The position numbers were made by a program, and so were the translations under genes. The notes beneath the pieces were generated by a model. It did no database searches. It was not told the origin of the DNA and worked only from the letters and a program-made list of their open reading frames with translations. Below, piece after piece: positions 34,503 through 59,961 of a stretch of DNA of 64,000 nucleotides (position 1 is the stretch's first letter; each line of letters begins with the position of its first letter). Origin of the DNA: Planctomycetota bacterium (lineage in GTDB: Bacteria; Planctomycetota; PUPC01; DSUN01); assembly GCA_035384565.1 (NCBI GenBank), contig DAOOIT010000002.1, positions 8,579 through 72,578 of the forward strand. The letters run 5' to 3'.

Positions 34503-34514
34503 GGCGGCAAGCGG

Positions 34515-36399: not shown

Positions 36400-36485
36400 T
36401 CGAGCGAGGAGCACACGGGCCATGCCGCGTCGGGCTCGACGTGCGTCTGTGCGTGACGCGGCTCTGAGCGGCGCGGGGCTGGGGG

Positions 36486-37541
36486 TTGCAGGCCCTTGGG
36501 CGAAAGGAGAAGGCCGTGAGAGCGCTCGGGAATCTCTGGGGTCTCGTGGTCGCGGCAGTGGCGCTCGGCGGCGAAGCCGTGAAGGAGCCCCCGCCCACCT
36601 GGCCCTGGCCGGGGCCTACCCCGCCAGAGCAGCGGGAGGCCATGATGAAGAGGACCTTCCTCATCCAGCCCGCGCCGCAGGACATGAAGACCATCGAGGA
36701 GCTTGCGCCGGACAAGCCTCCCGCGGCGCCACAGAAGCCCCGCAAGCTCCTCCTCTGGGGCCGGGTCTGGACCCACATGGCCAACCCCATGACCGAGGAA
36801 ACGGTGAAGACCCTGGGCCGGAAGACAGGCGCCTTCGAGGTCGTGGTCACCGACGACCCGCAGATGCTCCTGCCGGAGAAGCTCAAGGGCTTCGATGCCA
36901 TCTTCCTCAACGGCCTGCACGACCCCACCCCCTTCCTGCCGCACTGGCTGAAGAGCATGCCCAAGGAGGAGCAGGAGGCCGCGATTGCCTTGGACCAGAA
37001 GGTCAAGGCCAGCATCCTCAAGTTCGTCGGCGAGGACGGCAAGGGCATCGCCGGCATCGAGGGCTCCATCTGCGCCCTGCGGGACTGGAAGGAGTTCGGC
37101 GAGCTGATGGGCGCCTTCTACGCCGGCCACTACGTAGGCAACTTTGTTCTCAAGGTGGACGACCCGGCCCACCCGCTGACGGCCTGCCTTGCGGGGCAGG
37201 CGTTCAAGGTGTTTGATCAGGGCTATGTCCCCGGCCCACCTTACTCGCCGAAGAAGGTGCGCGTCCTCTTGAGCCTCGACCTCACTCAGACGCCTGACCC
37301 TGTCGCCGATCCAAAGGCGGCCTGGCTGAAGCCAAGCGTGGAGAAGCTGGAGCAATCCACCGGACGCAGGGAGTACCCCATCAGTTGGGTCAAGTCGTAC
37401 GGCAAGGGGCGGGTCTTCTACCTTTCGCTGGGCGTACAGAAGGCCCCCTACTCCAACCCGCTCTTCATGCGCTACCTGCTGGGCGGCATCCAGTTCGCCC
37501 TGGGTGACCTGCCAGGCGACACCACACCGAGCGAGAAGTGA
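36486..37541 (+). CDS. ThuA-like (trehalose-utilisation protein A family; class I glutamine amidotransferase-like fold) secreted protein
   Basis: ...RKLLLWGRVWTHMANPMTEETVKTL...FDAIFLNGLHDPTPF...YPISWVKSYGKGRVFYLSLG...PLFMRYLLGGIQFALGDL; signal-peptide-like N-terminus (GTG start about 36516 possible). Confidence 0.65.
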   Translation: MQALGRKEKAVRALGNLWGLVVAAVALGGEAVKEPPPTWPWPGPTPPEQREAMMKRTFLIQPAPQDMKTIEELAPDKPPAAPQKPRKLLLWGRVWTHMANPMTEETVKTLGRKTGAFEVVVTDDPQMLLPEKLKGFDAIFLNGLHDPTPFLPHWLKSMPKEEQEAAIALDQKVKASILKFVGEDGKGIAGIEGSICALRDWKEFGELMGAFYAGHYVGNFVLKVDDPAHPLTACLAGQAFKVFDQGYVPGPPYSPKKVRVLLSLDLTQTPDPVADPKAAWLKPSVEKLEQSTGRREYPISWVKSYGKGRVFYLSLGVQKAPYSNPLFMRYLLGGIQFALGDLPGDTTPSEK

Positions 37542-37555
37542 AGGAGGACACGAGG

Positions 37556-38920: not shown

Positions 38921-38970
38921 ACTGCCACGGGGGAGTTGGCGACCGCAACACCGAGAAGAGGAGATGAACT

Positions 38971-40591: not shown

Positions 40592-40834
40592 CTACTTGGA
40601 ATGGATGAGAAGTCTTGAGAAGGCGTTCATTTCGGAGCCGAGGCCGAAGAAGCAGGCGCTCTGGTCGGTATTGCGGTTGGCGTCTACGAACTTGATCTTT
40701 CGGGCGATGGCGCGAATGAACTTGGCGAGCGCGACGCGCGAACGGGCGTATTGCGCGAAGGTTTCGTCGCGGAGCGAGATCGTGAAGTTGCGCGTCCAGC
40801 CCTTCCCGTCCAGGCGCTTCTCCAGCGCGGGCAT
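40592..40834 (-). pseudogene. Small ORF or gene fragment in a locally lower-GC stretch; the protein-like frame extends upstream without a start codon
   Basis: 80-aa ORF MPALEKRLDGKGWTRNFTISLRDETFAQYARSRVALAKFIRAIARKIKFVDANRNTDQSACFFGLGSEMNAFSRLLIHSK. The same frame stays open upstream (...QGNLALRSPAIQHWDPTGREKAGRLDSTDVDAPGYGRFLKAL-M...) to about 40995 with no ATG/GTG, and it is the +1 frame relative to the upstream 733-aa gene. Confidence 0.25.
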
Positions 40835-41081
40835 GAGGGCTTTCAGGAAGCGGCCGTAGCCTGGGGCGTCAACATCCGTGGAGTCGAGCCTGCCCGCTTT
40901 CTCGCGGCCAGTGGGGTCCCAGTGCTGGATGGCGGGCGAGCGGAGCGCGAGGTTGCCCTGGGCATCCAGGGCGTGCTCAGACGCGCAATCCCGCTGCCTG
41001 TGATGCTCCCGCCAGCCAGCACAGGACTCCCGCCCACAGAATGCGAGAAGTTCGGCCTGCCATCTGAGGTCACTCCTCCCT

Positions 41082-43283: not shown

Positions 43284-44635
43284 CGCTTGGCCTCCCTTGG
43301 CTTGAAGGCTCGCAGGTTGTCGCCGCCGTGGGACATTGCCGGGATGGCCCTGATGATGCCGTTGGCGAAGACCTTCCCCTCGGCGACGACGGGCGAGTAG
43401 ACGTGGAAGCCCTTGGCGCCGCCCGTGAGCTTGCCGGCGTCGGGGCATTCGCCCCAGGGCCAGGGATGGCGCCTGCTGAGCTCCAGAATCGTGCCGTCGC
43501 GGCGGCCGATGAACGACGTGCCGAAGATGAAGTCCTGCGTCAAGGCCACGTTGTTCTTGATCAGGTGCCCGCCCGTCCAGGCGCGGGTGAACTCCTCGTC
43601 CCAGAGGAGCTTCCCGGTCTTGAGGTCGAAGGCGAGGACGGGGGCGTTGTGTTCGTGATTGTAGATCGTGCAATGGGCGTAGACCACGCCATCGGCGATG
43701 GAGGGGGCGAGGCCCTGGAACTGGGCGATGGAGTAGAGCTTGCGGAACCAACTGCGGTTCCCGCCCCACTCCATCTCCTGCGGCGGCTTGGCCTCGCGGG
43801 GCCAGCTCCACAGTTCCTCGCCCGTCTTCGCATCCAGGGCGTAGAAAGTGATGCCCTTGCCCTGCTCGACGAGGGCCTTGGCGAGGTTCTCGTGGATGAA
43901 CCACTCGTAGCCGGTGCCGTCGTCCCAGACCCGCCCGAGTAGCGTGCCGATGCAGACCACGCCGTCGGCGACCGAGGGCGACGAATAGGCGATCTTCCCT
44001 TGAGTCTTGTGGCTCCATAGCTGCTTGCCGGTGGCCTTGTCGAAGGCGAAGAGCATGCCTTCGCGTGCCGCGGCGTAGACGATGCCGCCGGCGACGGCGG
44101 GGCTGGACCACACCTGGCTGCCGCAGTCGGCCTTCCACTTCTCCTCGCCAGTCTTAAGGTCCAAAGCATAGAGGTTGAAGTCGTTTGAGCCGATGAAGAC
44201 CACGCCGTCCACGATGGCGGGCGCCGACCATATCTTGTCGCCCGTCTCCTTGCGCCAGACGAGCTTGCCCGATTGCGCGTCAAGGGCGTAGACCGTCTTG
44301 TCGTCGCTGCCGAAAACGACGATGTTGGAGTTCACGGCGGCGGCGAAGCCGATCTTGCCTTTCGCATCAAAGTGCCAGAGCTCATCGCCTGTGTCGGCAT
44401 TCAGGCAGAAGAGGCGGCCGCCCCACGTGCCGATGTAGACCCTGCCGCCGGCCACGACGGGCTGCGCGGTTGAGCGGCCGATCTCCTTGTCCCACGCGAT
44501 CACCAGATCGGGGCTGATCGGCTCGTTGGAGAAGCTCGTGTGCGCGGGGTCGTGGGCGTAGCACGGCCATTCGTCCGCCAACGCGGCCCCGAGGCCGAAG
44601 GCGCCGGCGATCACGGCCAGAAGAGCGGTTCTCAC
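43280..44635 (-). CDS. Secreted PQQ-like beta-propeller repeat protein
   Basis: Signal peptide MRTALLAVIAGAFGLGAALA; repeated ...G.VY.G..DG.LYALDA.TG..LW... blades (VYIGTWGGRLFCLNADTGDELW, VFGSDDKTVYALDAQSGKLVW, VFIGSNDFNLYALDLKTGEEKW). Confidence 0.75.
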   Translation of the reverse strand: MRTALLAVIAGAFGLGAALADEWPCYAHDPAHTSFSNEPISPDLVIAWDKEIGRSTAQPVVAGGRVYIGTWGGRLFCLNADTGDELWHFDAKGKIGFAAAVNSNIVVFGSDDKTVYALDAQSGKLVWRKETGDKIWSAPAIVDGVVFIGSNDFNLYALDLKTGEEKWKADCGSQVWSSPAVAGGIVYAAAREGMLFAFDKATGKQLWSHKTQGKIAYSSPSVADGVVCIGTLLGRVWDDGTGYEWFIHENLAKALVEQGKGITFYALDAKTGEELWSWPREAKPPQEMEWGGNRSWFRKLYSIAQFQGLAPSIADGVVYAHCTIYNHEHNAPVLAFDLKTGKLLWDEEFTRAWTGGHLIKNNVALTQDFIFGTSFIGRRDGTILELSRRHPWPWGECPDAGKLTGGAKGFHVYSPVVAEGKVFANGIIRAIPAMSHGGDNLRAFKPREAKR

Positions 44636-44637
44636 GG

Positions 44638-46395
44638 TTACTCCCCCAGTCTGGCGGCTGCCTCAAGGAGCTTGCGGCGGGCCTGGTTGAACTCGGCGGG
44701 GTCGAGGGTGTAGTCGGTGAGGCTGCGGACGACGCTGCGGCAGATGGCATCGGCCTCCTGCGGCCTCTTCGCGGCCAGGAGGCGGAGGAGCTCGTAGTCC
44801 TCAATCCCGTCGCGCATCGCCTCGTAGCGGAGGCTATCGAGCGAGTGGAGCTTGTCCTCGGAGGACGGTGCGCCGCGGAGCTTGGCCACGCCGGGATAGA
44901 CGAGCGTCGCGTCGCCCGGCGGGTCGCCGGGGTTCTGAAACGGGTTTCCCCACGAGGGGTTGAAGCCCCAGTGGAGGTAGCCGGTGGTGCCCGTGGCGAA
45001 GTTGGCCCAGTGGAGGAGCCGCGTCTTGATGAGCGGGTAGTCAATCAGGCGGTTCATGTACTTGCCGCGCGGGCGCTCGCAGGTATAGAACCACACCTCG
45101 TCGCCGGCGGCCTGGCGCTCCTGGAAGAACTTCATCTGGCGGTCGAGCTGGTCAAGGAGCGGCGCCCAGATGTCAAGCGCCCCGACGATGTTGGTCGCGC
45201 GGATGGCTTCGGCGCGGCGGAGCTTCGGGGCGTACTTCTTGACGAGCTGCCCCAGCCGCACATAGGCCGCCGCGTTGCTCCCCACCGGCTCGTCGGCCTG
45301 GAGCTGGATGTAGCTCTCCACCCAGCCCTTCTCCTCAAGATGCTTCTGGAAGGCGGGGAGGAACGCAGCAAGATACTTCTCAAAGGCATCCGTCATCACG
45401 AACACCCGCTTCCTCGCCTCTTCCTTCGAGGCTGGGTCCTCGGGCGCGGGGAATTGGCCTTTGGTGCCATCGGGCTTTGTGAGCGGGAGAGGGATGGCAT
45501 AGAAGTCCTTGGACATCCATTCGTGGCGGCCTGCGAGCGCGGAGCCCATGACCCACGGCAGGCCCGCCTGGCGGAAGGTCTCGACCATACGGTCGAAGTT
45601 AGCGAAGTCAAACGCCACGGCGCCCTTCTCGTCCTGAACCGCGCGGACGGTCTCGTGAAGCGTCACGTGGCCGACGCTCTGGCGGTGGGCAGCCATGCTC
45701 GCGGCGTCGGCCTCGATCAGCTTCCAGTGCTTCTCCGACCACCACGGGGCCTGGTACATGTGGGTGAGGACGACGGGGTAGTACCAGTTGACCACCTTCA
45801 GGCTCATCTGGCGGGGGACGCGCGCGGCATAGACCCTGACACTGAGCGGCACCTTCTGTTCCACTCCGTCCGCCGCAATGGCCACGTGGCCCTCGTAGGT
45901 GCCCGGCGCCGCGTCGTCGGGGACCGCCACGGTGAGCCACACCGCGCCGGTTTGCCCGGCCTTGGCGGAAATGGAGCTGTCCTCGAGCAGCGGGTCGGGC
46001 AGGTCTACCGGCGCCTTCGCCACGAGGACCTGTTCGCCTGTTTCGGCGAGGTGTGGCTCCGTGTTCTTCTTGATGGGCACATAGCCGACGAAGCGGACCC
46101 GCGGCATTGCAAGCTCGGCGCCTGCCGCCGATTTCAGCACTGTCGCCGACGCGGCGAGCCTGGCCACATCGGCCGTTGTGCGGAAGGCGATCTGGCCATT
46201 CTCGACCTCGCTGCGGGCGGCCTCTATGATGACGCTTCTTGGTGGTGCTGCCGGCGGCTCATCCGTGCGAAGCACCTTCACCAGAGGGTCCACGGCCCAC
46301 ACCCGCAGCCCGATCTCGGCAGCGCGCGCGCCGCCCAAGCCGATCGCAAGGACGCACAGCTCTCCCACGGCGGCAGGCAGCCAAGACCCCTTCAT
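44638..46395 (-). CDS. Secreted hypothetical protein, possibly glycoside-hydrolase-like (DUF4091-type, tentative)
   Basis: Signal peptide MKGSWLPAAVGELCVLAIGLGGARA (start about 46395; the track ORF starts at 46488); C-terminal region ...DYPLIKTRLLHWANFATGTTGYLHWGFNPSW...DGIEDYELLRLL. The family call is from memory, not verified. Confidence 0.5.
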   Translation of the reverse strand: MKGSWLPAAVGELCVLAIGLGGARAAEIGLRVWAVDPLVKVLRTDEPPAAPPRSVIIEAARSEVENGQIAFRTTADVARLAASATVLKSAAGAELAMPRVRFVGYVPIKKNTEPHLAETGEQVLVAKAPVDLPDPLLEDSSISAKAGQTGAVWLTVAVPDDAAPGTYEGHVAIAADGVEQKVPLSVRVYAARVPRQMSLKVVNWYYPVVLTHMYQAPWWSEKHWKLIEADAASMAAHRQSVGHVTLHETVRAVQDEKGAVAFDFANFDRMVETFRQAGLPWVMGSALAGRHEWMSKDFYAIPLPLTKPDGTKGQFPAPEDPASKEEARKRVFVMTDAFEKYLAAFLPAFQKHLEEKGWVESYIQLQADEPVGSNAAAYVRLGQLVKKYAPKLRRAEAIRATNIVGALDIWAPLLDQLDRQMKFFQERQAAGDEVWFYTCERPRGKYMNRLIDYPLIKTRLLHWANFATGTTGYLHWGFNPSWGNPFQNPGDPPGDATLVYPGVAKLRGAPSSEDKLHSLDSLRYEAMRDGIEDYELLRLLAAKRPQEADAICRSVVRSLTDYTLDPAEFNQARRKLLEAAARLGE

Positions 46396-46504
46396 CCAGG
46401 CGCTCCTTTCAACACGAGAGCTCTCCCACAGCCGCAGTCTAGGCTGCCTGGCATCCGGAATCAAGCAGCCATAGCCACCTTCCGCCACCGCTCAGGGTGC
46501 AAGC

Positions 46505-46765
46505 CGGGTGTGGGCCGGAATTGTAGGCGGCTGCGGGAGTTCCGAAGGAGCGAAATAGGATAGCCCAGGGCAACGCCCTGGGAACAAGACCGCCCCGCGG
46601 CAGCCCTGACAGGGCGGAATCGAGAGCTTCTATCTCGCCCCTTCAGGGCTGGACTCGTGGATCCCGCTGAACCCAGGGCGTTGCCCTGGGCTATCCCATG
46701 CGAGCCCTTCAGGCTCCAGAGACAATCACCCTGCCTGCAATTCCGGCCCGCACCCGTGCAAGCCG
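46505..46765. repeat. Nested inverted-repeat element in the divergent intergenic region
   Basis: Inner arms ggatagcccagggcaacgccctggg (about 46557-46581) and cccagggcgttgccctgggctatcc (about 46669-46693) are perfect reverse complements about 90 bp apart, and each arm is itself a hairpin (cccagggc-aac-gccctggg). Outer arms ggtgcaagccgggtgtgggccggaattg (about 46505-46532) and caattccggcccgcacccgtgcaagcc (about 46737-46763) give 18 of 19 matches in the core. Confidence 0.5.
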
Positions 46766-48262: not shown

Positions 48263-50800
48263 ATGGCCGCGAGACGCACGCTCCCGCTCCTCCTGGCCTC
48301 GCTTCTCTCGAGTCCTGCCGCGCTCCCCGCGGGAGAGGATGAGTATGTGGGGCTGCACTTCACGAAGCAGCCCGACGGCAGCGTGATCGCCGGCGGTCTC
48401 GGCTGGCGAGCGGCGACCGAGAAGGACGGCATCCGCCTCGGCCGCCGCGCACACATCTGCTTTGAGGAGGGCGGCTACGGGCTGGAGGGCTGGTGCACCT
48501 ACGCCGGTTCGGATTGGGCCGACATCGGCCTCGTGCGGCCCGGCCCTGCGGCGCTCACGCCCGAGGACTCCGAGTCCTCCTGGGCCACCGTGCAGAGCTC
48601 GTTTGCCTACCAGGAGGGTGGCAAGGCTCAGACTTTCAGAGTATACGTCACGCGTCTCTCGCCTGCCGTGGTCTTCGAGCTGACGGGGAAAGAGCTGCGG
48701 CTCTTCGAGGGCGCGAAGGTCTCCAAGTTCGCCCGTGGCGATGCGAGCTGGGTGCCGCCTGAGCAGCGCCTGTCCGTCCCGCCGCCGGTGCCGAAGCACT
48801 TCGCCACCGAGGGCGCGGCGACATCCCGCGAGGAGATCGGCAACCTGGCGGTCAAGAGCTGGCTCCTGGCGTGGTACGGGGTTGACTCGCGGATTCGCGC
48901 GGAGGCCGACATCGGCCATCGCACCATCGCCGTGGACTGCCCCGTGCTTCTCGTCTTCAGCGCGCCGCCGGCCACGCTCGCCGCCGGGCCGGACGGCCTG
49001 GCCGTCGCGTTCGCAAGCGAGGGGGTTAAACGTGTCGCAGTCCTGCCGCTTCTCGGCGAGCGCTTGCCGAAGGCCGTCCCTGGCGAGAAGCCGAAACCCT
49101 ATCCGGCTCATGTCGGTGCCTTCCGGGCGAATCACGAGTTCCAATTCGCCGATCTCCCGCCAACCGAGACATGGAAAGATGGGCTACCCAAGGAGGTCGC
49201 CGCGCAGTGCGCCTGGTGGGCCGAGCACCTGAGGGAAGTGCCGGTTAGTGTGACTGAGACACACGCCTACCACGCCGCCGCCGACACGCTCACCGTAACG
49301 GGCAAGGTGGAGTTCCTGCGGCTCGCCGATGGCGGCAAGCGCTTCGCCCCGCTCCCGCCAATGCTTGCGGTGGCAGCAAGGAAGAAGTTCTCGCCGCTAA
49401 GCCTCCGGGGAGAACCCAGCAGCTCCGGCTTCATGACCAAGTGGGGGCCGTACGTGGGAATGGAAGGTGGCGACGGCTACGCCTACTCTGTGAAGGGACT
49501 AGGCCGTTACGCCTTTGAGGTTCGCTCGACCGGAGAAGGCAAGGAGCCCGAAGAAGTGCGCCGGGCCTTCGACCGCGAGGTCGCCAAGGTCATCGAGGCC
49601 GGCATCATGGCCCCCTGGTTCCCCATCCTGGCGGTCGGCGGCTTCGGCGGACGCGCCAGCCGCGCCCACAACGAGGGCCATCGCCTCCTCTGGGGCATCC
49701 CTGGCGAGAACCTGTACTTCATCGGCCAATGCCTCGACCTCGCCACCCCCGAGCACCGCGCCAAGCTCACAGAGCTGGCCCGAGCCTGGGAAGCCAAGTA
49801 CCCCTCCGAGAAGGTCGCCCACATGCCCGCCACTGCCGACGCCCAGCGCGAGCACTACCTGCCCACCATCCACAAGGTCCGCCCGTGGCCGCAGCGGGAG
49901 TTGAACTTCCACTTGCTCAACAACGTCCTCCCCTGCGAAGCCGAGTACTATCTGGCCGACTACTGCCGCTACGCGGGCGAGAAGCCCGCCGCCCTTCCGC
50001 GCATCCTGGAGCCCTACCTCGCCCGCTCGGACTGGGCGTCCCTCGGCCTCCTGCGTGGGGCCAAGACCCTGTTCAAGAACGACAAGGGCCGCGACACCTT
50101 CGACCGCGACTACGGCAAGGGCGGCGTGGACGACGCCAACCGCCTCTTCGCCGGCCTGGTCGGACGGGTTCGCCTGGCGCGTATGCTCGGCAACCAGGCC
50201 GAAGTGGAACGCGCAATGTACCATCTCGCCCGCACAGCCATCCTGCGCTTCGCCATCGAGCAGTGGAAATACATCCTCCACGAGGACAAGTTCCTCGCCC
50301 TGCGCCCCGCCGACGCGCCGCCCCGCAGCTTCTTCGGCACCGGCCTCCACACTTTCGGGCGCAAGACCCCCGACGACGACCCGCTCGTCGTCGCCGAGAT
50401 GGACGAGTTCCTCCTCACCATGCGCGAGTGCTACGTCCACGTCCACTGGCACCCCCACCGGCTCATCGCCTACCTCCACATGGTCCCGGAACTTGGCCGC
50501 TTCCTTCAAGACCACCTCAAGGCCGAAGTCGGCCACTACGTCCGCATCCTCGAGGAGAGCAACCCCGAGTGGTACACGCCCTACGCCGACTGCACGCTGT
50601 CGTTCGAAACCTACAGCCTTCATCCGGCCGACTCCTACCAGGCCTTCCTCGCGCGGGCCTGGGTGACAGGCGACCCGCCTGAGCGGCTCTGGCGCTACGC
50701 CGACCTCCCCTGGATTGGCCGCGGCGACTGGTTCTACATCCACAAGCTCGCGGAGACGATCAGGGCATACAGAGGCGAGCGATGGGAGGCGTTGAAATGA
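48263..50800 (+). CDS. Large secreted hypothetical protein (845 aa)
   Basis: Signal-like N-terminus MAARRTLPLLLASLLSSPAALPAG; long, well-behaved ORF 4 nt after the preceding gene; no family recognised. Confidence 0.6.
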   Translation: MAARRTLPLLLASLLSSPAALPAGEDEYVGLHFTKQPDGSVIAGGLGWRAATEKDGIRLGRRAHICFEEGGYGLEGWCTYAGSDWADIGLVRPGPAALTPEDSESSWATVQSSFAYQEGGKAQTFRVYVTRLSPAVVFELTGKELRLFEGAKVSKFARGDASWVPPEQRLSVPPPVPKHFATEGAATSREEIGNLAVKSWLLAWYGVDSRIRAEADIGHRTIAVDCPVLLVFSAPPATLAAGPDGLAVAFASEGVKRVAVLPLLGERLPKAVPGEKPKPYPAHVGAFRANHEFQFADLPPTETWKDGLPKEVAAQCAWWAEHLREVPVSVTETHAYHAAADTLTVTGKVEFLRLADGGKRFAPLPPMLAVAARKKFSPLSLRGEPSSSGFMTKWGPYVGMEGGDGYAYSVKGLGRYAFEVRSTGEGKEPEEVRRAFDREVAKVIEAGIMAPWFPILAVGGFGGRASRAHNEGHRLLWGIPGENLYFIGQCLDLATPEHRAKLTELARAWEAKYPSEKVAHMPATADAQREHYLPTIHKVRPWPQRELNFHLLNNVLPCEAEYYLADYCRYAGEKPAALPRILEPYLARSDWASLGLLRGAKTLFKNDKGRDTFDRDYGKGGVDDANRLFAGLVGRVRLARMLGNQAEVERAMYHLARTAILRFAIEQWKYILHEDKFLALRPADAPPRSFFGTGLHTFGRKTPDDDPLVVAEMDEFLLTMRECYVHVHWHPHRLIAYLHMVPELGRFLQDHLKAEVGHYVRILEESNPEWYTPYADCTLSFETYSLHPADSYQAFLARAWVTGDPPERLWRYADLPWIGRGDWFYIHKLAETIRAYRGERWEALK

Positions 50801-51282
50801 GGCTCCTCAGGGTCTGGCGATCCTGACGCGGCCGCTGCCGGGGAGGGTCGGAAGGGGGCTCCGGCACCCGCGAGGGCCATCGCATAACCCTCTATGTCCC
50901 ATCGCCTTACGCTCCTCATGCAGCCCCCATGGCATGCCGGCTCATCCCGCAGATGAGCGAGCATGGCCGGAGCCGCGAGAATCGCCCATTCTCGCCCATC
51001 TGCCCATGCTGTATCACTTTCCTCCTCACAGGGTTGATACAGCATGGACACGCTGCTCCCGCCCAGGCACTCGGGTGCGCCCTCCCAAGGAACTGCCAGG
51101 GCCGCGGCCCCCTCAACGGTTCAGGCGCCCGATGGCCAAGGTGCAGCGGGCCGCACAGCGGCAGACCGAGCGCGTGCAACGGGGCGTTTGACAACGGCGG
51201 CGCGGAACTGGTATCCTGCAAGGCACCTGGGGCGGCTTGCCCCGACGCAGCAGGAACCGGCCACGAAGGAACCGCAAGCCAG

Positions 51283-51368
51283 GCCGGAGTGGCGGAATGG
51301 CAGACGCGCTGGATTCAAAATCCAGTGGCCGCAAGGTCGTGAGGGTTCGACTCCCTCCTCCGGCACCA
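51283..51368 (+). tRNA. tRNA-Leu (anticodon CAA)
   Basis: GCCGGAG-TG-GCGG-AATGGCAGA-CGC-G-CTGGA-TTCAAAA-TCCAG-[long variable arm TGGCCGCAAGGTCGT]-GAGGG-TTCGACT-CCCTC-CTCCGGC-A-CCA gives a cloverleaf with a 7/7 acceptor stem, anticodon loop tt-CAA-aa, a long extra arm typical of Leu, and an encoded CCA. Confidence 0.85.
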
Positions 51369-51522
51369 ACGACGCAGCACGCGGCAGGGCAAGGAGCCAT
51401 GTCATCCTGCCCTGGCCCTCTCCCATCTCACCTCTGGTGTCTCGCTCCACAGCCCGCTTTGCCATGATCCGTCTCCAGGCAATGCCGTGCGACCCGGAAC
51501 GACCCCAGCAGGAGGAGCGCCG

Positions 51523-54500
51523 ATGAGACCGGCCGTGCGGCTATCGCTGGTTCCGCGGGTTTTGGGCGCGACGGCCATCCTGGTTCTCGCGCTGGCGGCC
51601 TCTGCGATGCGGGCACAGGCTGACCTCGTGCTTGCAGACAAGGGGGGCACCGAGGCCGTCATCGTCCACAACGGCTTCGAGAGGCAGGCGAAGGACCTCC
51701 AGGCGTACCTCCTGAAGATCACGGGGGTGGAGCTCCCCTTCGGCGCGGAGGCCCCAGGGCGGCCCGCCATTGTGCTCCAAGTGGTCGAGAGGGTGCCCGG
51801 GGCGAGCGACCGCGCCACGGCGAAACAGGCATACCGAATTCACACGGAGGGCCACCGGTTGCTCCTCACCGCCGCGACCGAGCTGGGCCTCACCTATGCC
51901 GTCTGGGGCTTCCTCGAGGACCATCTCGGCTGCCGCTTCTACAGCTACTCGGCCATGCCGTTCAACAGATACCTCGGGCCGAAGTTCGAGCTCGTCCCCC
52001 AGCGGCCCCGCCTGCGGCTGGGCCAGATAGACGAGGTGCAGGAGCCGGCCTTCCAGCTCCGCGGCTTCGTCTACTACCTGAGCCTCGGCGACTGGCTCTT
52101 CAAGAACCGCGGCGGCGGCCTGCCCATCGCACCCCACGGCGGAGCCGTGTGCGGCACCCACAACTTCTACCACTTCGCCGACCCGAAGACCTACTTCGAG
52201 AAGCACCCCGAGTGGTATCCGCTCCGCGGCGGCAAGCGCCAGCACGACTGGGCCATGGGCCTCTGCGGCACCAATGAGGAACTGGCCAGAGAGCTGGCGA
52301 AGAACCTGATGGAGAAGCAGATGGCGAAGTGGAAGGACCCCGCGTTGCCCATCCCCCTCGCCCAGGGCGACGGCTACACGGGCTGCCAGTGCCCCGCCTG
52401 CCGCGAACTGGTGGAGAGGGAGGGCACCGAGGCCGCACCGCTGCTCCTGCTCCTCAACCGCATCCTGGATATCACGACCAGGACCTATCCCGACCTCCAG
52501 ATCGTCACCTTCTCGTACTTCGAAACCCTCATCCCGCCGAAGACGATGAAGCCGCATCCGAACCTGTGGTTCAACGTCGTCTCCAGCTCCCTCTCGCAGA
52601 ACCACGCCGGCGACCAGGTCGGGCCGATTCGCGGCAACCCCGCCAACCGCGATTACCTGCGGGCCATCGAGGGCTGGCCCAGGCTCGCCCCAGGCCGCGT
52701 GACCCTCTGGGACTGGGCGCTCACCAGCAACCCCCTCGTCGAGTGGCCCAACCTCTTCTTCCTGCCCGACAACGTCCGCCTCTGGCACGAGAGCGGCGTC
52801 ACGGGCGCCGCCCTCCAGGTCTGCTGGGGCACAAGCAACTGGAACTGGCTGCGTAACTGGCTCTTCCTCAAGCTCGCCTGGAACCCCAGGGCCGATGCTG
52901 AGAAGCTCATCCGCCAGTTCCTCGACGACTACTATGGCCGCCGCGCGGCAGGGCACCTTTGGGAGTACCTGCGGCTCACCAGGCAGGCGTACGAGGACGC
53001 CTGCCACAGCTACGTCCCCAGCGGCGTCCGCTGGACCTATTGGCCCCAGAACCTGCGGGCGAAGATGTACCCGCCAGACGTGTTGGAGAAGATGGATGCC
53101 CTGATGGCCCGGGCCATGCGCGCCGCGGCGCGCGAGCGCGACCCCCTCTATGCCCAGCACGTGGCCGAAGCGCGGGCGACGAGTGTGGACCTGCTCGTGC
53201 TCGACGAGGCGCGCTGCGCCGCGCCGTTCCAGCCCGTGAGCTGCCGCGAGGACGGCCAGCGCTGGCTCGTGCCCGGCGGCCGGGCCGACCTGCCGGCCCG
53301 CATCCGCCGCATCGCCGACATCTACGCCCTGGGCGACAACAGCGAGCACGGCCCCGAGCGCGAGACCTCCTGGTTCGTCGCCTCCCAGGGCGGCCTCATC
53401 GCCTCGTTGCGAAACGCCCACTACGCCGTGGACGTCGTGCCGAACCTCCGCGGCCAGATCACCAGCATCGTCCACCTGCCCACGGGCAAGGAGATCCTGG
53501 CCGCCGACGGCGCCGAGTTCGGCTACCGGGACCTGTTCGACCGCATCAGCTCGCAGCTCTGGAGCCTGGCGGGGGAGGGGAGGCGGCCTGAAGGCCGTAC
53601 TGCGAGCGTGGAGACGGACCTCCTCCTCTCGCCGCCCTACTGGGGATTCACCAAGGCGAATCGCATGCCCCGCTCCGTCGCCTTCACGCCCGACGGCGCG
53701 GGCGTCGTTGTGTCCCGCCGTTATGAGCAGGACAAGGGCGGCGGCCTGCCGGACAAGACGCGCTTCACCACCCGCTGGATGCTCCAGTTGCCCGAGCCCG
53801 CGAGGGCGCGGGTGGCCGTCCGCGGCGGCGGCATCGAGCGAATGCTCGACCTGCGCCACGTCCGGCCCGGCGGCGTCCGCGGCGAGAGAGTCGGCGAGCG
53901 CCTGCCGGGCGCCGACTTCATGGACCAGCGCTTCGATGACGTGACGGCCGTCTCCGACGCGCAGGTCGTCTCGCTGCCCATCGCTGATCCCGAGGGCGAG
54001 GTCGCCGTGCGCCTCGACCGCGGCGACGGCCTCCTCGTCACCCTCACCCTTCCCGCGGCGGGCTGGGAGCGGATGGACCTCCAGCCCGTGGCCGAGAAGC
54101 GCCGCCTCACCGTCACCCTCGTCGGCACGCCGGCCGCGACGGACAAGGAGGCCAGAGCCATTGAGCTGCCGACGCAGACGCTACGGGTCAGCAATGCCCC
54201 CGTTCGCAGTGCGGGCTTCAGCCCCTCTCCGAGCGAAGAGAAGATACGGCCTGAAGGCCGCACTACAAGCGCCATCCGGGTTGTCGGCGACGGGCGGGCG
54301 GTGAACGAGCGCGATGGCGCCGAACTGGTCTGGGTGCCTGCGGGCGAGTTCCTGCGCGGCAGCCCGAAGGGCGAGGGCAGCGCCGACGAGCGGCCGCAGC
54401 GGAAGGTCTGCCTCGACGGCTTCTGGGTCTACAGGTTCCCCGTCACGCTCAAGCAGTACCGGGCATTCTGCGAGAAGGCCGGCCGCGAGATGCCGCCCCT

Positions 54501-55038
54501 GGCCTGGGGCCAGAGCCTGCGCGTGGATGAGAAGGCCGACGAGGGGAGCTACCCGATGCTCGTGAACTGGCACGACGCCGATGCCTACGCGAGGTGGGCG
54601 GGGGGCGCCCTGCCCACCGAGGCCCAGTGGGAGAAGGCCGCCCGGGGCACCGACGGCCGCCTCTACCCCTGGGGCAACGCCTGGGACCCCGAGCGCGCCG
54701 TGGGCATGGAACGTACCCACTACCGCCACAAGGCCGGCATGTTCCCCGTCGGCAGCTCGCCTGCGGGCGCCAGCCCCTACGGGGCCGAGGACATGGCCGG
54801 CAACGTATGGGAGTGGGTGGCCGACTGGTATGGGTATCGCTACTACGAGCGCGCTCCGCGCAACAACCCGCTCGGCCCCGAGGCCGGCTCGCACAAGGTG
54901 CTTCGCGGCGGCGACAGCATGTGGGACGAGCGCCTGGCCCGCTGCGCCGCCCGCATGGCCATGCCCCCCCACGTCCGCGACTGGGTGAAGACGGGCTTCC
55001 GCGTCGCGCTGCCCGGCGGCGCGGCTCGCGGGCGCTGA
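51523..55038 (+). CDS. Secreted multidomain protein: N-terminal DUF4838-like (glycoside-hydrolase-associated) region fused to a C-terminal formylglycine-generating-enzyme (FGE)/sulfatase-modifying-factor domain
   Basis: Signal MRPAVRLSLVPRVLGATAILVLALAASAMRAQA, then LVLADKGGTEAVIVHNGFERQAKDLQAYLLKITGVELPF (DUF4838-style N-terminus). C-terminal 250 aa: VWVPAGEFLRGSP...RPQRKVCLDGFWVYRFPVTLKQYRAFC...GNVWEWVADWYG...KVLRGGDSMWDE (FGE/SUMF1 fold motifs). An alternative start at 51487 is possible. Confidence 0.65.
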   Translation: MRPAVRLSLVPRVLGATAILVLALAASAMRAQADLVLADKGGTEAVIVHNGFERQAKDLQAYLLKITGVELPFGAEAPGRPAIVLQVVERVPGASDRATAKQAYRIHTEGHRLLLTAATELGLTYAVWGFLEDHLGCRFYSYSAMPFNRYLGPKFELVPQRPRLRLGQIDEVQEPAFQLRGFVYYLSLGDWLFKNRGGGLPIAPHGGAVCGTHNFYHFADPKTYFEKHPEWYPLRGGKRQHDWAMGLCGTNEELARELAKNLMEKQMAKWKDPALPIPLAQGDGYTGCQCPACRELVEREGTEAAPLLLLLNRILDITTRTYPDLQIVTFSYFETLIPPKTMKPHPNLWFNVVSSSLSQNHAGDQVGPIRGNPANRDYLRAIEGWPRLAPGRVTLWDWALTSNPLVEWPNLFFLPDNVRLWHESGVTGAALQVCWGTSNWNWLRNWLFLKLAWNPRADAEKLIRQFLDDYYGRRAAGHLWEYLRLTRQAYEDACHSYVPSGVRWTYWPQNLRAKMYPPDVLEKMDALMARAMRAAARERDPLYAQHVAEARATSVDLLVLDEARCAAPFQPVSCREDGQRWLVPGGRADLPARIRRIADIYALGDNSEHGPERETSWFVASQGGLIASLRNAHYAVDVVPNLRGQITSIVHLPTGKEILAADGAEFGYRDLFDRISSQLWSLAGEGRRPEGRTASVETDLLLSPPYWGFTKANRMPRSVAFTPDGAGVVVSRRYEQDKGGGLPDKTRFTTRWMLQLPEPARARVAVRGGGIERMLDLRHVRPGGVRGERVGERLPGADFMDQRFDDVTAVSDAQVVSLPIADPEGEVAVRLDRGDGLLVTLTLPAAGWERMDLQPVAEKRRLTVTLVGTPAATDKEARAIELPTQTLRVSNAPVRSAGFSPSPSEEKIRPEGRTTSAIRVVGDGRAVNERDGAELVWVPAGEFLRGSPKGEGSADERPQRKVCLDGFWVYRFPVTLKQYRAFCEKAGREMPPLAWGQSLRVDEKADEGSYPMLVNWHDADAYARWAGGALPTEAQWEKAARGTDGRLYPWGNAWDPERAVGMERTHYRHKAGMFPVGSSPAGASPYGAEDMAGNVWEWVADWYGYRYYERAPRNNPLGPEAGSHKVLRGGDSMWDERLARCAARMAMPPHVRDWVKTGFRVALPGGAARGR

Positions 55039-55087
55039 ACCACGCCCGGGGCGCTCTGCCTGCGAACCGGCCGCGCGGGGCCCGCGT

Positions 55088-56521
55088 CTACCGCTTGGGT
55101 CCCCGCTCCGCAAGGAACGCCCGAAGATAGGCTTGGCGGAACTTCTCCATCGCCTCGCCGCTCGCGACGCAATCGTCCCACGGCAGGTCGGGCCTCACGG
55201 GCGGCTCATAGGCGGGGGGCTGGGCGCGGTGCCGCGCCGCCAGCTCGCGGAAGACGCGGCCCCAGGCCTTCTCCCTGCCGTCCACCGTGAACAACCCCGT
55301 CAGCCGGCTCACGTCCCTCGCTTCGGGGTGGTCGTACAGGCCCCAGTTGAGCCAGCCGCAGGCGATGGGCGCGGTGACCTCGACCACGCGCCGGCACCAC
55401 TGCGCTTGCTGCTCCTCGGTGGCAGGCTTGCCTCCGGCGTCGAGCGGCCCGCCGCCGTACCAGCCGAACTCCGCGATGACGAGCGGCAGCCCGGGCCTTG
55501 CCGCCTCGCGCGCCATGGCCTCCAGCACCGCCAGGTTGGCGGCTTCGGCCTCCGGGCTCTCGTACCTGTAGGCCCCGCTCGCCAGCGGGTAGAAGTGCAG
55601 GGACATGAAGTCCAGGTGCTTCGCGATGGCGGCCGGCCGGAAACCCGCATATTGGTCCAGGCCGATCTTCTGCGCCGGAACCGACCATTGGATCAGGCCC
55701 ACTGTCACCAGCGCATCGGGGTCGGCGGCACGAATCGCCTGGGCCTGGCGCGCGACCCACTTTTCGGCCGCGCTCTCGCGGAACCGCTGGTAGTCGCCCG
55801 CGTGAGCCGCGGGCGGCTGCGCCTTCGGGTCGGGCACGGGGACTGGCTCCTGGCCGTGCTGCTTCCGCCAGGCGTCCCACTGGGTGCGCAGGTGAGGCGT
55901 GTCCCAGGCCACGGACGGCTCGTTGCGGAGGTCATAGGCCCAGAGGGTGGTCCGCCCCCGATAGCGCGTGGCGAACAACCGCCAGTAGTCGTCGAGGGCC
56001 TGGAGGCAGGCCTCGTGGGCATCGAGGCTGAAGAAGTTCATCCCCTTGGCCCACGGCGGCATGCCCTCCCAATGGTCGGGCCCCGTGGGATGGACGTACA
56101 GCCCCGCCTCGTCGGCCAGGTCGAGCAGCTTGTCGAACTTCGCCAGCCCCTCGGGGTCGAGCCTGTCGGGCTCCTTGAAGAACGAGCCGAAGGATGCGAA
56201 GACCCGCACCACGTTGGCGCCGAGCTTCCGCAGCAGGGCGAAGTCTCTGCGGGTGGCCTCCGCATCGAACTGCTTCCACAACTGCGGCGCCCAGCCTGTC
56301 CCCGGCCGGTAGTAGCTCACCCCGAAGGGCACGAAGGGCCGGCCGGCGGCGTCCACGAAGCCGCGGCGGGCAGTGTCCACTCGCACCTTCGGCAGACGCG
56401 TCCCCGGCGGAACGGCGGCGTCTGGCTCCCCTGGTGCGGCCAGGAGGACAAGGGGTACCATTGCGGTGAGCAACACGGTTCGCGCCTCGCTGTGTTCGAG
56501 ATGGGTTGTCCGCCCGCGCAC
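55088..56521 (-). CDS. Secreted glycoside hydrolase family 5
   Basis: Signal peptide; GANVVRVF..., acid/base LRNEPS, nucleophile region LVIAEFGW (the GH5 NEP/E(F)G motifs); 477 aa. Confidence 0.75.
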   Translation of the reverse strand: MRGRTTHLEHSEARTVLLTAMVPLVLLAAPGEPDAAVPPGTRLPKVRVDTARRGFVDAAGRPFVPFGVSYYRPGTGWAPQLWKQFDAEATRRDFALLRKLGANVVRVFASFGSFFKEPDRLDPEGLAKFDKLLDLADEAGLYVHPTGPDHWEGMPPWAKGMNFFSLDAHEACLQALDDYWRLFATRYRGRTTLWAYDLRNEPSVAWDTPHLRTQWDAWRKQHGQEPVPVPDPKAQPPAAHAGDYQRFRESAAEKWVARQAQAIRAADPDALVTVGLIQWSVPAQKIGLDQYAGFRPAAIAKHLDFMSLHFYPLASGAYRYESPEAEAANLAVLEAMAREAARPGLPLVIAEFGWYGGGPLDAGGKPATEEQQAQWCRRVVEVTAPIACGWLNWGLYDHPEARDVSRLTGLFTVDGREKAWGRVFRELAARHRAQPPAYEPPVRPDLPWDDCVASGEAMEKFRQAYLRAFLAERGPKR

Positions 56522-56676
56522 ACGCGGCCCCTTCAGACATGCCTTGGCGCCACCCGCGAGTCAAGTGCCCCGTGCTGGCGCTCTCGGGGGCCGAGGGCGG
56601 GGTTCTTGACACGGCATTGGGGGTGTGCATGATGGCAGCCGGCGGCTGAACGAGAGAGCGGTCCCTTGCGCAAGGA

Positions 56677-59600
56677 GTGAACCCGATGGGGCGAACCCTG
56701 GTGTGTGGCCTGGCTTTCCTGCTGTGCGCGGCGGCCCAGGCCGGCAGCCTGGCGGATACGCCGACGCAGTACCTGATCCGCAAGCCGCCGAAGCCCGTGG
56801 TGATTGACGGCAGGCTGGACGAGTGGGACCTGGCGGCCTCGCCCTACGTCATCAGCCCGACGAGCAAGGACCCGCTCTCCAGCATCCACGCCAACGAGCC
56901 GACGAATCCGCCGAAGGGCGATGCCGACATCAGCGGCCGGGCCGCTCTCGCCTGGGACGAGCAGTGTCTCTACGTGGCCGGCCAGATGGTGGACGACCAT
57001 CTCGTGGGCATCAAGCCCGACAGCGCCGGCAACCAGGGGCCGCCCGGCTGGGGCTGCGACAGCCTGATGCTGCTCGTCCACTCCTTCCGCCAGCCGATGA
57101 AGACCAACTCGCCCTACAGCAAGACCCCCTTCCTCGGTCTCCGCTACGCGCCCACCGGCCCGAATCCGCGCGGGAGGCTGCTGCCCGACGCCGCGGCCCT
57201 CGACAAGCGCGACGCCTATTGGGTGCTCACCGAGAACTCGAAGTGGGCCTGCACCGAGACGCCCCAGGGCTACAACGTCGAGGCGGCCATCCCGTGGAAG
57301 GACCTCGCCTTCGCGCCGCGGCCCGGCGAGAGGCTCTTCATGGCATTCCTCGCCGCCGACATTGATCCCGATGAGGCCCTCAACCAGGTCGGCTGGGGCT
57401 TCCACGGCGAGCCGAAGGACTGCCCGATCTTCCGCCTCGTGGAGCAGGACGACGCCCTCGGCCTCCTCACCCTCTCGATGGACGATGTGCCCTCCAACAA
57501 GGGGCTGGCCGTTCGCGCCGAGCTGGACGCCCTGAAGGACGGTGTTCGCATCGAGGCCATCGTCGTGCGGAACGCCCAGGACAAGGTGGTGCAGGAGGCG
57601 AAGGCACCCCTGGATGTGCCGAAGGGCAAGACCGGCCAGGCACTCGTCGAGCTTTCGCCCATCGCCGAACCGGGCGGCTATCTTGCAGAGCTGGTGGCGC
57701 GGACGCCGCGGGGCGGGGTCGTCGCCGCGAGGGAGCCGTTCTGTGTCGTCGCGCCCGAGAGCGTTAACCTCCCGCAGGTTTCGAAACCTGCGGGAGGTTT
57801 CCCGGGCGAAATTCATCACATGCCGCCCGACCGCATCGCGCACAACGCCTGGAGCGCCCACCGCACCGGCTTCTACAAGCACGGCTACGTCAAGGGCAAG
57901 GAGGACTACGTGCCCTGGCTCCGCAAGTACGTCGAGCCCGGCCTCAAAGGGCGGGCGCAGCAGTACGCCAAAGGCGGCAACCCCTGGGCCTACCGCGAAG
58001 CCTTCCAGTGCCTGGCCATGCACCGTCTCACTGCCGACCCCGAATATGCCGCCCTCGCCCGCGACGTGATGGACGCCATGCTCAAGATCGAGGAAGAGAA
58101 GGGGATGGGCTGGTTCCAGTTCACCAGCACCGCCATGTACCGCTACCTCACGTGGCTGAAGGACCCGAAGAGCCCCTTCGCCCCGCCCGACGCCGAGAAG
58201 CGCTATCGGGCGATTCTGCTCAAGGTCGCCGCACAGCCCGAACCGCACCTTTTCAACGAATCGGGCACCCACAATCGCGTGTGGCACCGCTATTCGATTC
58301 AGAAGGCCGCCCGCCAGGTGGCCGAGGCCGACGGCAAGCCGATTGACCCGCGCATCATCGAATACACCAACTACCACGACAAGCTGATCGGCGCGGTGGG
58401 CGACGACGACGACAACTCGGCGGGCTATCACTGGGTCTTCTTCGATGCCGCCGCCGCGCTCTACTTCCACACGGGCGACTGGGGGGCGTTTGCCCAGCAC
58501 AAGGGCTTCCGCCGCACCCTCGCCCGCTACGTTGAAATGGTCGCCCCCAGCGGCGCCTGCGTCCCCTTCGGCTCCGGCTCCGGCTGGCCCGAGGTCGGCC
58601 ACTCGATGTGGGCCTACGAGTGGATGTCCAACATCACCCGCGACGGCCGCTTCCGCTGGACCAGCCACCGCATCGCCGAGTACTTCTATAATCACATGGA
58701 TTACCGCGCGAACCAGTACCACCTGCCGTTTGACAACGCCCGCGACAACTTCGTCCTCGCCTACCTCTTCGCCGACGATGCGGTGCAGCCGGCCCCGCCC
58801 TCGGGCCAGAGCCGCATCACCTGGCGCCACCCGATGGCCAGGGTGCCGCTCGAGGAGTTGAAGGCCCGGCCCGGCCTGTGGCACCTGCGGATGGACGGCT
58901 CGCAGTGGGTGCCCGACAAGCTGGTGCTCGCCAGCGGCGCCCAGGCGCAGGACCTCTGGGGCCTCGTGGAGCTGTTGCCCCACGGCGGCCACTGCGGCGA
59001 GCTGCCAGGCAACCTCACCAACCTGATGATCCACGACGGCGCGCTCCTCGCCGGCAACGGCTACTACGAGCTGACGCCCGACTTCAATAACATTCTGTGG
59101 GTGGAAGACCTGGACGGCCTGGCCGCCGACCCGCGGCCCATGACCACCGAGGTGCCGGTCTTCGTGGAAGACCCCGCCTTCACCTTCGCCCGCATCAGGA
59201 CCACCGCCTACCAGCACCTGCCGCTCACCTACACCCGCGACATCCTGTTCGTCAAGAACGGCTTCATCGTGGTGAAGGACCGCGTGGAGTTCGGGGCGAC
59301 GATGAAGGTGCGGCTCGGCCCCTGCTACCAGACCCGCAGCCTCGGCCCCGAGTGCGGCGAGAACTGGTTCAACGCCTGGTTCGACCAGCTCTACTACACC
59401 GGCCTCGGCCTCGGACGCGGCGTCCAGGCCATCCGCAATCCCTCTTGGGACCTCCTGGTCTACTTCACGCCGCGTGCCGACCGCACGCACACGGTGCAGG
59501 ACAAGACGATGGAGAACGTGTGGCGGAACGCCCCCGTGCAGTTGCGGCAGGTGTGGTCGGGCATGGCCAGGGCGGGGCAGACGCTCACGTTCACCAGCAT

Positions 59601-59961
59601 CCTCCTGCCGCACGTCCCCTCCATGACCCCGAGCGAGTTCCTCAAGGACCAGAAGCGCATCGAAGTAGCGCACGATGATGACGACCTGACCGTGCTCAAG
59701 GCCACAAGCGAGATGGACCCGATGAACAAGCTCCGCAGTGACACGTGGGTGATGCTCAACACCACGGGCAAGCCCGCCTCCGCCGGCCCGCTGGCGAGCG
59801 ATGGCATGCTCGCCGTCATCGGCCACGACCACATTGGGCAGATTCAGTCCCGCGTCGTCGTTGGCGGCAAGTCGCTCACCTATCGCGGCGCCGACGAATC
59901 GCCCAAGGCCCGCACGCACGAGGCCAAGCCCGCCCAACTTCCCCAGGAACTCCTCGAGTGA
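56677..59961 (+). CDS. Large secreted protein with N-terminal CBM9-like domain and C-terminal lyase/hydrolase-like region (heparinase II/III-like, tentative)
   Basis: Signal MGRTLVCGLAFLLCAAAQA; VIDGRLDEWDLAASPYVISP...GYNVEAAIPWKDLAF is CBM9-like; the rest (about 900 aa) has no firm family call. Contains the in-CDS palindrome at 57766-57799. Confidence 0.6.
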   Translation: MNPMGRTLVCGLAFLLCAAAQAGSLADTPTQYLIRKPPKPVVIDGRLDEWDLAASPYVISPTSKDPLSSIHANEPTNPPKGDADISGRAALAWDEQCLYVAGQMVDDHLVGIKPDSAGNQGPPGWGCDSLMLLVHSFRQPMKTNSPYSKTPFLGLRYAPTGPNPRGRLLPDAAALDKRDAYWVLTENSKWACTETPQGYNVEAAIPWKDLAFAPRPGERLFMAFLAADIDPDEALNQVGWGFHGEPKDCPIFRLVEQDDALGLLTLSMDDVPSNKGLAVRAELDALKDGVRIEAIVVRNAQDKVVQEAKAPLDVPKGKTGQALVELSPIAEPGGYLAELVARTPRGGVVAAREPFCVVAPESVNLPQVSKPAGGFPGEIHHMPPDRIAHNAWSAHRTGFYKHGYVKGKEDYVPWLRKYVEPGLKGRAQQYAKGGNPWAYREAFQCLAMHRLTADPEYAALARDVMDAMLKIEEEKGMGWFQFTSTAMYRYLTWLKDPKSPFAPPDAEKRYRAILLKVAAQPEPHLFNESGTHNRVWHRYSIQKAARQVAEADGKPIDPRIIEYTNYHDKLIGAVGDDDDNSAGYHWVFFDAAAALYFHTGDWGAFAQHKGFRRTLARYVEMVAPSGACVPFGSGSGWPEVGHSMWAYEWMSNITRDGRFRWTSHRIAEYFYNHMDYRANQYHLPFDNARDNFVLAYLFADDAVQPAPPSGQSRITWRHPMARVPLEELKARPGLWHLRMDGSQWVPDKLVLASGAQAQDLWGLVELLPHGGHCGELPGNLTNLMIHDGALLAGNGYYELTPDFNNILWVEDLDGLAADPRPMTTEVPVFVEDPAFTFARIRTTAYQHLPLTYTRDILFVKNGFIVVKDRVEFGATMKVRLGPCYQTRSLGPECGENWFNAWFDQLYYTGLGLGRGVQAIRNPSWDLLVYFTPRADRTHTVQDKTMENVWRNAPVQLRQVWSGMARAGQTLTFTSILLPHVPSMTPSEFLKDQKRIEVAHDDDDLTVLKATSEMDPMNKLRSDTWVMLNTTGKPASAGPLASDGMLAVIGHDHIGQIQSRVVVGGKSLTYRGADESPKARTHEAKPAQLPQELLE
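57766..57799. repeat. Perfect 34-bp palindrome aacctcccgcaggtt-tcga-aacctgcgggaggtt inside the CDS (copy 2 of the element at 31935-31967)
   Basis: The exact reverse complement of itself; arms differ from copy 1 by one compensated position (G/A); encodes ...NLPQVSKPAGGF... in frame. Confidence 0.6.

Follow-up and report, generated by a model that had tools for sequence, protein, structure and literature searches.

Positions 51523 to 55038 of the forward strand of a 64,000-nucleotide stretch of DNA from a Planctomycetota metagenome-assembled genome (MAG), here called the window (contig DAOOIT010000002.1 of assembly GCA_035384565.1), encode a large protein with two strongly matched domains. I propose that it is a secreted modular glycosidase, in which a DUF4838 barrel is catalytic and a tethered domain with the fold of formylglycine-generating enzyme (FGE), devoid of that enzyme's cysteines, acts as a binding module. 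I put the probability of this reading at about 0.65.

Domain architecture

The fusion of a DUF4838 domain to an FGE-sulfatase domain in one protein, called by a first-pass annotation of the DNA, is borne out at the stated position, far beyond chance, by searches with hidden Markov models. PF16126 (DUF4838) matches residues 151-483 with an E value of 8.6e-48 (163.6 bits against a cut-off of 26.6), and the match covers profile positions 2-324 of 325, so that the protein belongs to this Pfam family. PF03781 (FGE-sulfatase) matches residues 933-1162 with an E value of 2e-48 (165.7 bits against 23.3). The only other Pfam match on the protein is a sub-threshold one to Glyco_hydro_20b (PF02838) at residues 49-127 (E 1.5e-3). 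Some homologues match PF02838 or PF03648, and a family profile of the N-terminal 537 residues, compared with the sequences of the Protein Data Bank (PDB), gives a marginal match (E 0.026) to the N-terminal domain of BT0459 (6q63), a member of glycoside hydrolase (GH) family 20.

The order and boundaries of the domains were taken from the secondary structure that DSSP assigns to an AlphaFold2 (AF2) model. The predicted template modelling score of the model, 0.90, suggests a defined arrangement of domains, though the linker between the two halves is modelled with low confidence, as judged by the predicted local distance difference test (pLDDT). The parts of the protein are these:

51523-51621, + strand: Sec-type signal peptide, aa 1-33, ending AQA before D, no lipobox Cys; recognized by eye from the sequence
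51622-51927, + strand: GH20b-like N-terminal alpha/beta domain, aa 34-135; weak Pfam Glyco_hydro_20b match, marginal structure-sequence match
51928-52893, + strand: DUF4838 (PF16126) triosephosphate isomerase (TIM) barrel, presumed catalytic, aa 136-457; Pfam, AF2 pLDDT mostly >90, GH115 and GH20 fold matches
52264-52401, + strand: cluster of four cysteines, C248, C288, C290 and C293 (GCxCxxC plus a distal Cys), adjoining QGDG
52363-52374, + strand: invariant Q281-G-D283-G motif with the candidate catalytic Asp, at the C-terminal end of a barrel strand (277-280, DSSP)
52894-53223, + strand: helical bundle, aa 458-567; DSSP of the AF2 model
53224-54207, + strand: beta-rich region including a galactose-mutarotase-like supersandwich, aa 568-895
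54208-54273, + strand: variable, low-confidence linker, aa 896-917; pLDDT <50 at residues 899-913, 8% mean identity to relatives
54274-55017, + strand: domain of FGE (C-type-lectin-like) fold that lacks the catalytic residues of FGE, aa 918-1165
54913-54945, + strand: degenerate FGE active-site loop DSMWDERLARC, aa 1131-1141, in the place of the loop of Thermomonospora curvata FGE

The linker is the segment with the lowest conservation and the lowest model confidence in the whole protein. The helical bundle takes the place that a helical-bundle domain has in published GH115 structures.

An FGE fold without its cysteines

There is no doubt about the fold of the C-terminal domain, which matches FGE structures with Foldseek E values of 1e-15 to 1e-17. 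What distinguishes a catalytic FGE is a pair of Cu(I)-binding cysteines, C336 and C341 in the human enzyme. This pair, which the first-pass annotation had named among the things to look for, is absent from the protein and from 60 relatives aligned to it. Alignment to T. curvata FGE (5nxl/6s07) sets FLCHESYCNRYR against SMWDERLA, a gap of three residues and R, the loop being shorter by that amount. The first Cu-binding Cys is replaced by W1134 and the second by A1139 or a gap. Among the 60 relatives the two columns hold Y/W/F and S/A; Cys occurs in none of them at the first column, in 3 at the second, and nowhere as a pair. Because both cysteines are missing, a function as formylglycine-generating enzyme is, from the sequence, essentially excluded for this domain, and it falls among the many bacterial FGE domains that, as the first-pass annotation noted, are non-catalytic binding modules.

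What might still be said for a working FGE, or for some related sulfur-oxidising enzyme, coupling the maturation of sulfatases or the processing of sulfated glycans to a glycosidase? The match to PF03781 is strong, fold and sequence searches find 28-32% identity to genuine FGEs, and a DUF4838 enzyme, Sp_0475 of Streptococcus pneumoniae, has a sulfated sugar as its substrate (Bains et al., J Biol Chem 2023, PMC10570127). Besides the loss of the cysteines, there is the lack of anything for such an enzyme to activate: a sulfatase (PF00884) is found in none of the 39 other candidate open reading frames (ORFs) scanned across the window, in keeping with the first-pass annotation, and in none of seven homologous loci, whose homologues are 56-66% identical over the FGE-like region and 46-66% overall. 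A secreted FGE acting on extracellular sulfatases that are already folded is in any case mechanistically implausible. Nor does the protein contain, as judged by Pfam, the DinB or 3-His iron-binding domain of EgtB and OvoA. The NCBIfam scores fall far below their cut-offs (EgtB TIGR03440, 81.7 against 360; SenA, 77.3 against 420; OvoA, 25.7 against 400), with matches confined to C-terminal parts, so that a sulfoxide or selenoxide synthase of the EgtB/OvoA/SenA type is essentially excluded. I consider a sulfur-oxidising role very improbable.

No evidence ties the protein to sulfated glycans, as had been suggested. There is no sulfatase nearby in the ORFs and loci scanned, FGE-type chemistry has been lost, and the sole remaining connection to sulfate is the literature precedent of Sp_0475 (GH185, a 6-sulfo-GlcNAcase, that is, an enzyme that removes 6-sulfo-N-acetylglucosamine), which lies on the DUF4838 side. 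These proteins are at present annotated as 'formylglycine-generating enzyme required for sulfatase activity' or 'sulfatase modifying factor 1', almost certainly in error.

An FGE fold that has lost one chemistry might have acquired another. No other part of the protein is as well conserved as the FGE-like domain, whose mean identity is 61% where that of the barrel is 51%, and the place of the FGE active site is taken by a charged motif, [YWF]-D-E-R-[FL], that is peculiar to the family fused to DUF4838. It occurs in 0 of 84 generic FGE-like domains from GTDB genomes of many phyla, which served as controls; in these the loop reads RGGSW..., and none of them has the C-x4-C spacing of FGE. (The contigs were scanned with patterns derived from the FGE domain, and the scan found generic FGE-like domains only, with no full-length relatives.) One may therefore imagine a second catalytic domain, for example a PvdO-like oxidoreductase, working through the D1135-E1136-R1137 loop in a bifunctional enzyme that acts on a modified glycan. 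But the domain shows no recognizable metal or cofactor motif, PvdO itself is rejected by a score of 54 bits against an NCBIfam cut-off of 500, and proteins with a closely related core do without the domain. Most of the conservation, moreover, lies in fold-level residues common to generic FGE-like domains, including those borne by unrelated proteins. A second active site seems unlikely.

Outside the family, the FGE-like domains closest to this one are borne, often in tandem, by Ser/Thr kinases, a caspase, a trypsin-like protease, a KAP NTPase and TIG, PEGA and NPCBM proteins, and since they are fused to partners so diverse, the FGE fold is, by this sequence comparison, a promiscuous accessory module, part of a very large non-catalytic class. 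The fusions of FGE-sulfatase domains described in the literature, to metacaspases, kinases and targets of diversity-generating retroelements (DGRs), agree with the partners found here. The figures tabulated for individual FGE-fold proteins are 27.3 for PvdO, 26.2 for the DGR variable protein TvpA, 26.2 for PorK, 25.9 for CalU17 and 25.9 for ToxD. None of the non-catalytic FGE-fold proteins PorK/GldK, TvpA, PvdO, ToxD, CalU17 and pFGE/SUMF2 is fused to a glycosidase, unlike the protein considered here.

Two of these proteins suggest further roles. In PorK, an FGE fold that lacks the cysteines now serves as a docking hub, the former substrate groove being used for binding (PMC12421860). By analogy, the domain might be a protein docking module like that of PorK/GldK, anchoring the enzyme to a partner in the envelope or to a multi-enzyme assembly; it is reasonable to regard this as a sub-variant of the binding model. 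Against it, no neighbouring gene is conserved across the seven homologous loci that might encode the partner, membership in PorK/GldK is rejected by NCBIfam (51.3 bits against a cut-off of 350), and the large insertion domains of PorK are not indicated by any search result, no direct test for them having been made. I regard docking of this kind as doubtful.

TvpA of Treponema brings to mind a different role, that of the variable ligand-binding domain of a DGR target. Such a domain would need a template and a variable repeat, and no direct repeat of >=40 nucleotides occurs in 50000-58000. The gene downstream is a GH5 gene on the opposite strand, no reverse-transcriptase domain appears among the scanned ORFs, and C-terminal residues R1144, P1149, F1159 and R1160 are invariant across the relatives. 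Because there is no template/variable pair and the C-terminus does not vary, this role is rejected as extremely improbable.

The DUF4838 barrel and its likely active site

The first-pass annotation spoke of DUF4838 as a glycosidase-associated domain. The assignment to DUF4838 holds, but the domain is more than an associate: PF16126 is the catalytic TIM-barrel domain of families GH163 and GH185 of the CAZy database, and it is distantly related to GH20 (PMC10570127). The founder of GH163, BT1035 of Bacteroides thetaiotaomicron, is an endo-beta-N-acetylglucosaminidase that acts on complex N-glycans and carries a C-terminal F5/8-type-C module. The founder of GH185 is Sp_0475, an exo 6-sulfo-beta-GlcNAcase with a substrate-assisted retaining mechanism, whose key residues are Q174, H227, D309 and Y436, sulfate being bound by R633 (PMC10570127). 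DUF4838 is a large and diverse set, with 3826 sequences in the published similarity network, and just two specificities have been characterised among them.

Are the residues required of a glycosidase present in the protein? In the 60 relatives, R180, H213, Q281, D283, Y332/F333, D364 and W398 are invariant, and they lie at, or just after, the predicted strands of the barrel, while invariant W453 lies in the helix that follows the strands. Invariant residues gathered at the C-terminal face of a modelled barrel are what an intact TIM-barrel active site looks like. In the QGDG motif, Q, D and G284 are found in 60/60 sequences and G282 in 59/60. By inference, D283 would be analogous to D309 of Sp_0475 (PMC10570127). 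E174 is Glu in 55 of the 60 relatives and Gln in the remaining 5, and a Gln/Glu alternation has been described at Q174 of Sp_0475 (PMC10570127). E174, H213, D283 and Y332 vary little or not at all among the relatives and are placed on or close to strands of the barrel, and it is plausible that through them the protein shares with Sp_0475 a conserved constellation of Asp, His, Tyr and Gln/Glu.

Next to QGDG lies the cluster of four cysteines. All four are kept in 51 of 60 relatives, and several relatives lack all or most of them together. Because the cluster is lost as a block, the sequences suggest a structural site, either metal (Zn) or disulfide, beside the presumed active site.

A fold search with the core finds GH115 as its best match, and GH20 as well. 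By sequence the barrel matches no solved structure in the PDB, even with a family profile. GH115 in particular yields zero sequence matches with the family profile at E values up to 10, so that the resemblance to the GH115 alpha-glucuronidases (4c91, 7pxq, 4zmh) is one of fold only and the protein is not a member of that family.

BT1035 and the protein considered here both have a PF16126 catalytic domain, both are extracellular and modular, and both have a C-terminal accessory module presumed to bind (PMC10570127). They differ in the nature of that module: F5/8 type C in BT1035, with no such module detected by Pfam in the protein at hand, which has an FGE fold instead. They differ also in the extra helical bundle and mutarotase-like sandwich of the latter, and in the host, a gut Bacteroides as opposed to a Planctomycetota MAG. 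Sp_0475 has the PF16126 barrel too, and its best fold match is likewise GH115. The GH185 cluster (cluster 3 of the sequence similarity network) is without signal peptides and cytoplasmic (PMC10570127), whereas the protein considered here is secreted, is about 500 residues longer and ends in the FGE fold. The sulfate-binding R633 of Sp_0475 has no assignable equivalent. By these analogies, the functional resemblance of the protein is greatest to GH163/GH185, and its resemblance in fold is to GH115.

Distribution of the fusion

The first-pass annotation considered the architecture unusual. It is not rare. A search of a protein database clustered at 90% gave 152 relatives, and of the best 120 of these, 118 have PF16126 and PF03781 in full length, at 37-83% identity. 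The two exceptions among the best 120 are annotated as partial, and one of them (P0002, from a Planctomycetota MAG) is 100% identical over 68% of the query. The sources named are Planctomycetota, Phycisphaeraceae/Phycisphaerae, Lentisphaerae and Kiritimatiellia, within the Planctomycetes-Verrucomicrobia-Chlamydiae (PVC) superphylum. At 50% clustering there remain about a dozen full-length representatives. The fusion is thus a conserved family in Planctomycetes and their relatives and not a one-off. A far larger number of cluster representatives, >140,000, match the query at E <= 0.001, presumably for the most part through the FGE-like domain, as in the list of the top 150.

The core is not always joined to the FGE fold. 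It occurs alone, as a protein of about 860 aa, and with other accessories: a DLH/CE15-like esterase together with Laminin_G_3, an N-terminal HpiC1-like domain, PATR repeats, or an extra N-terminal GDSL esterase (the relatives with alternative fusions are P0129, P0139, P0147, P0128, P0035 and P0039). Because the same core is found by itself or with other modules, the FGE fold is, on this sequence evidence, one of several exchangeable accessories on a conserved glycosidase core. The fusions to esterases hint at a natural substrate that is a polysaccharide bearing acyl or ester groups. No glycosidase with an accessory module of FGE fold is described in the full-text literature, as searched, and the protein is therefore best classed as a modular glycoside hydrolase whose accessory module is unusual and uncharacterised.

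A model for the action of the protein

In the model that I favor, the N-terminal 900 residues or so would form an assembly like those of GH20 and GH115, consisting of the GH20b-like domain, the barrel, the helical bundle and the mutarotase-like sandwich. By analogy, the DUF4838 barrel would probably be a retaining enzyme for a hexosaminide or a similar glycoside, with invariant Asp283 of QGDG acting together with E174, H213 and Y332. A flexible linker of about 20 residues would tether the FGE-fold domain, which by analogy is most likely a non-catalytic module for ligand binding or docking, in the role taken by the F5/8-type-C module of BT1035. Through it the enzyme would be kept at a polymeric substrate or at the cell surface.

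Several considerations weigh against this model. No member of the clade is known to have been characterised, nor is a ligand known for this subtype of FGE-like domain. The 61% identity of the domain, as compared with 51% for the barrel, is unusually high for a carbohydrate-binding module (CBM). The [YWF]-D-E-R-[FL] motif that replaces the FGE active-site loop could mark a site that is catalytic or highly specific. Finally, GH115 enzymes, the best fold matches to the core, are inverting alpha-glucuronidases, and the chemistry of the barrel may differ from that of GH163/GH185.

One may go further and suppose that the Cys-less FGE module is the first CBM family built on an FGE/C-type-lectin-like fold, and that the DUF4838 clade, with which PVC bacteria would attack some polysaccharide of their environment, has a glycosidase specificity not seen before and is possibly a CAZy family or subfamily of its own. 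I offer this as a tentative suggestion that may well prove wrong. If the FGE-fold tail does bind glycans, it would be a new type of CBM and would provide a functional handle on the huge number of 'FGE-sulfatase' domains without the cysteines, to which the name formylglycine-generating enzyme is routinely and wrongly given. The PVC groups in which the clade is found are major degraders of complex, often sulfated environmental polysaccharides. Because the clade is conserved across these degraders (Planctomycetota, Phycisphaerae, Lentisphaerae and Kiritimatiellia), its substrate would add a missing activity to inventories of carbon cycling. The main value of the protein is as a candidate for the discovery of carbohydrate-active enzymes, and as a caution regarding 'FGE' annotations.

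The gene and its surroundings

The ORF that contains the gene extends from 51487 to 55038 (+ strand), with an ATG start at 51523. Its features are:

51509-51514, + strand: Shine-Dalgarno sequence AGGAGG, 8 nt before the ATG, read directly from the sequence
51523-55038, + strand: complete gene of 1171 aa plus stop, from the ORF list, the translation, a G+C content (GC) of 0.91 at third codon positions and full-length homologues at 37-83% identity

The GC by codon position, 0.69/0.51/0.91, is the coding signature of a sequence of about 67% GC, and all of the ORFs that overlap the gene have a non-coding GC pattern. The N-terminus, MRPAVRLSLVPRVLGATAILVLALAASAMRAQA followed by DL, looks by eye like a typical Sec signal peptide, which upholds the earlier claim that the protein is secreted; the stretch has low pLDDT in the AF2 model and is among the least conserved of the protein. 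A gene for tRNA-Leu(CAA) lies at 51283-51368 (+ strand; Rfam 60.4 bits, ARAGORN), about 155 bp upstream of the ATG and within the 720-bp gap between the preceding ORF and the gene.

The window as a whole falls into two parts: 1-31 kb, on the minus strand, is given to polysaccharide biosynthesis, and 32-64 kb to the uptake and breakdown of carbohydrate. The latter includes in all three Gfo/Idh/MocA oxidoreductases, two propellers of the pyrroloquinoline quinone (PQQ)-like type, a GH123, a GH5, a DUF2961 protein and two large ORFs of no family. In order of position:

1-31850, - strand: polysaccharide/O-antigen-type cluster with a Wzy_C ligase/polymerase, many glycosyltransferases (GT) of families GT1, GT2 and GT4, WecG, YdjC, an epimerase/dehydratase, several methyltransferases, a Wzt-type ATP-binding cassette (ABC) ATPase with Wzt_C, a GT4 (MraY/WecA-like) initiating transferase and a NusG-like protein
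32242-40353, + strand: ABC solute-binding protein, permease, small F5/8-type-C protein, ThuA and two Gfo/Idh/MocA oxidoreductases
40592-41170, - strand: ORF of 192 aa with a partial match to the GH123 catalytic domain, overlapping the next
41082-44138, - strand: long ORF with weak coding statistics and no family match
44638-46488, - strand: GH123 gene
46538-46582, - strand: Acido-Lenti-1 small RNA motif, located in the 5' leader of the GH123 gene (RF01687; 38.7 bits, gathering score 37)
48263-50800, + strand: ORF of 845 aa with a strong coding signature
55088-56521, - strand: GH5, Cellulase E 9e-22
56677-59961, + strand: ORF of 1094 aa with a strong coding signature

A second GH123-like gene, disrupted or mis-framed, may be what occupies the region 40592-44138 (- strand). 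The RF01687 motif is possibly a cis-regulatory element of the glycosidase gene that it precedes. The first-pass annotation had placed the protein next to a GH5 and a CBM9 protein. The GH5 is real, but the CBM9 match, in ORF 56677-59961, reaches just 22.9 bits against a cut-off of 23.4 and extends over 29 residues only. Both this ORF and the other large one flanking the gene, 48263-50800, lack any Pfam or NCBIfam family and have no homologue in the seven homologous loci.

When nine neighbours from the window were compared by tblastn with those loci, weak matches to Gfo/Idh/MocA were all that appeared. The GH123 and GH5 of one locus (L001), the latter only partly inside it, gave no match to those of the window at E < 1e-5. 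Various glycoside hydrolases lie near the homologues: GH123_N, GH5, GH31, GH38, GH95, GH9, GH130, GH44 and a second DUF4838. The neighbourhoods are thus of a generic glycan-degrading kind, and within them the gene behaves as a unit on its own. In one locus (L086), directly upstream of a homologue of 66% identity (P0005) and unrelated to the protein, positions 1293-9444 are occupied by a complete type III-A CRISPR-Cas module with Cas10/Csm1, Csm2, RAMPs, Cas6, a Csm6-like protein, Cas1 and Cas2.

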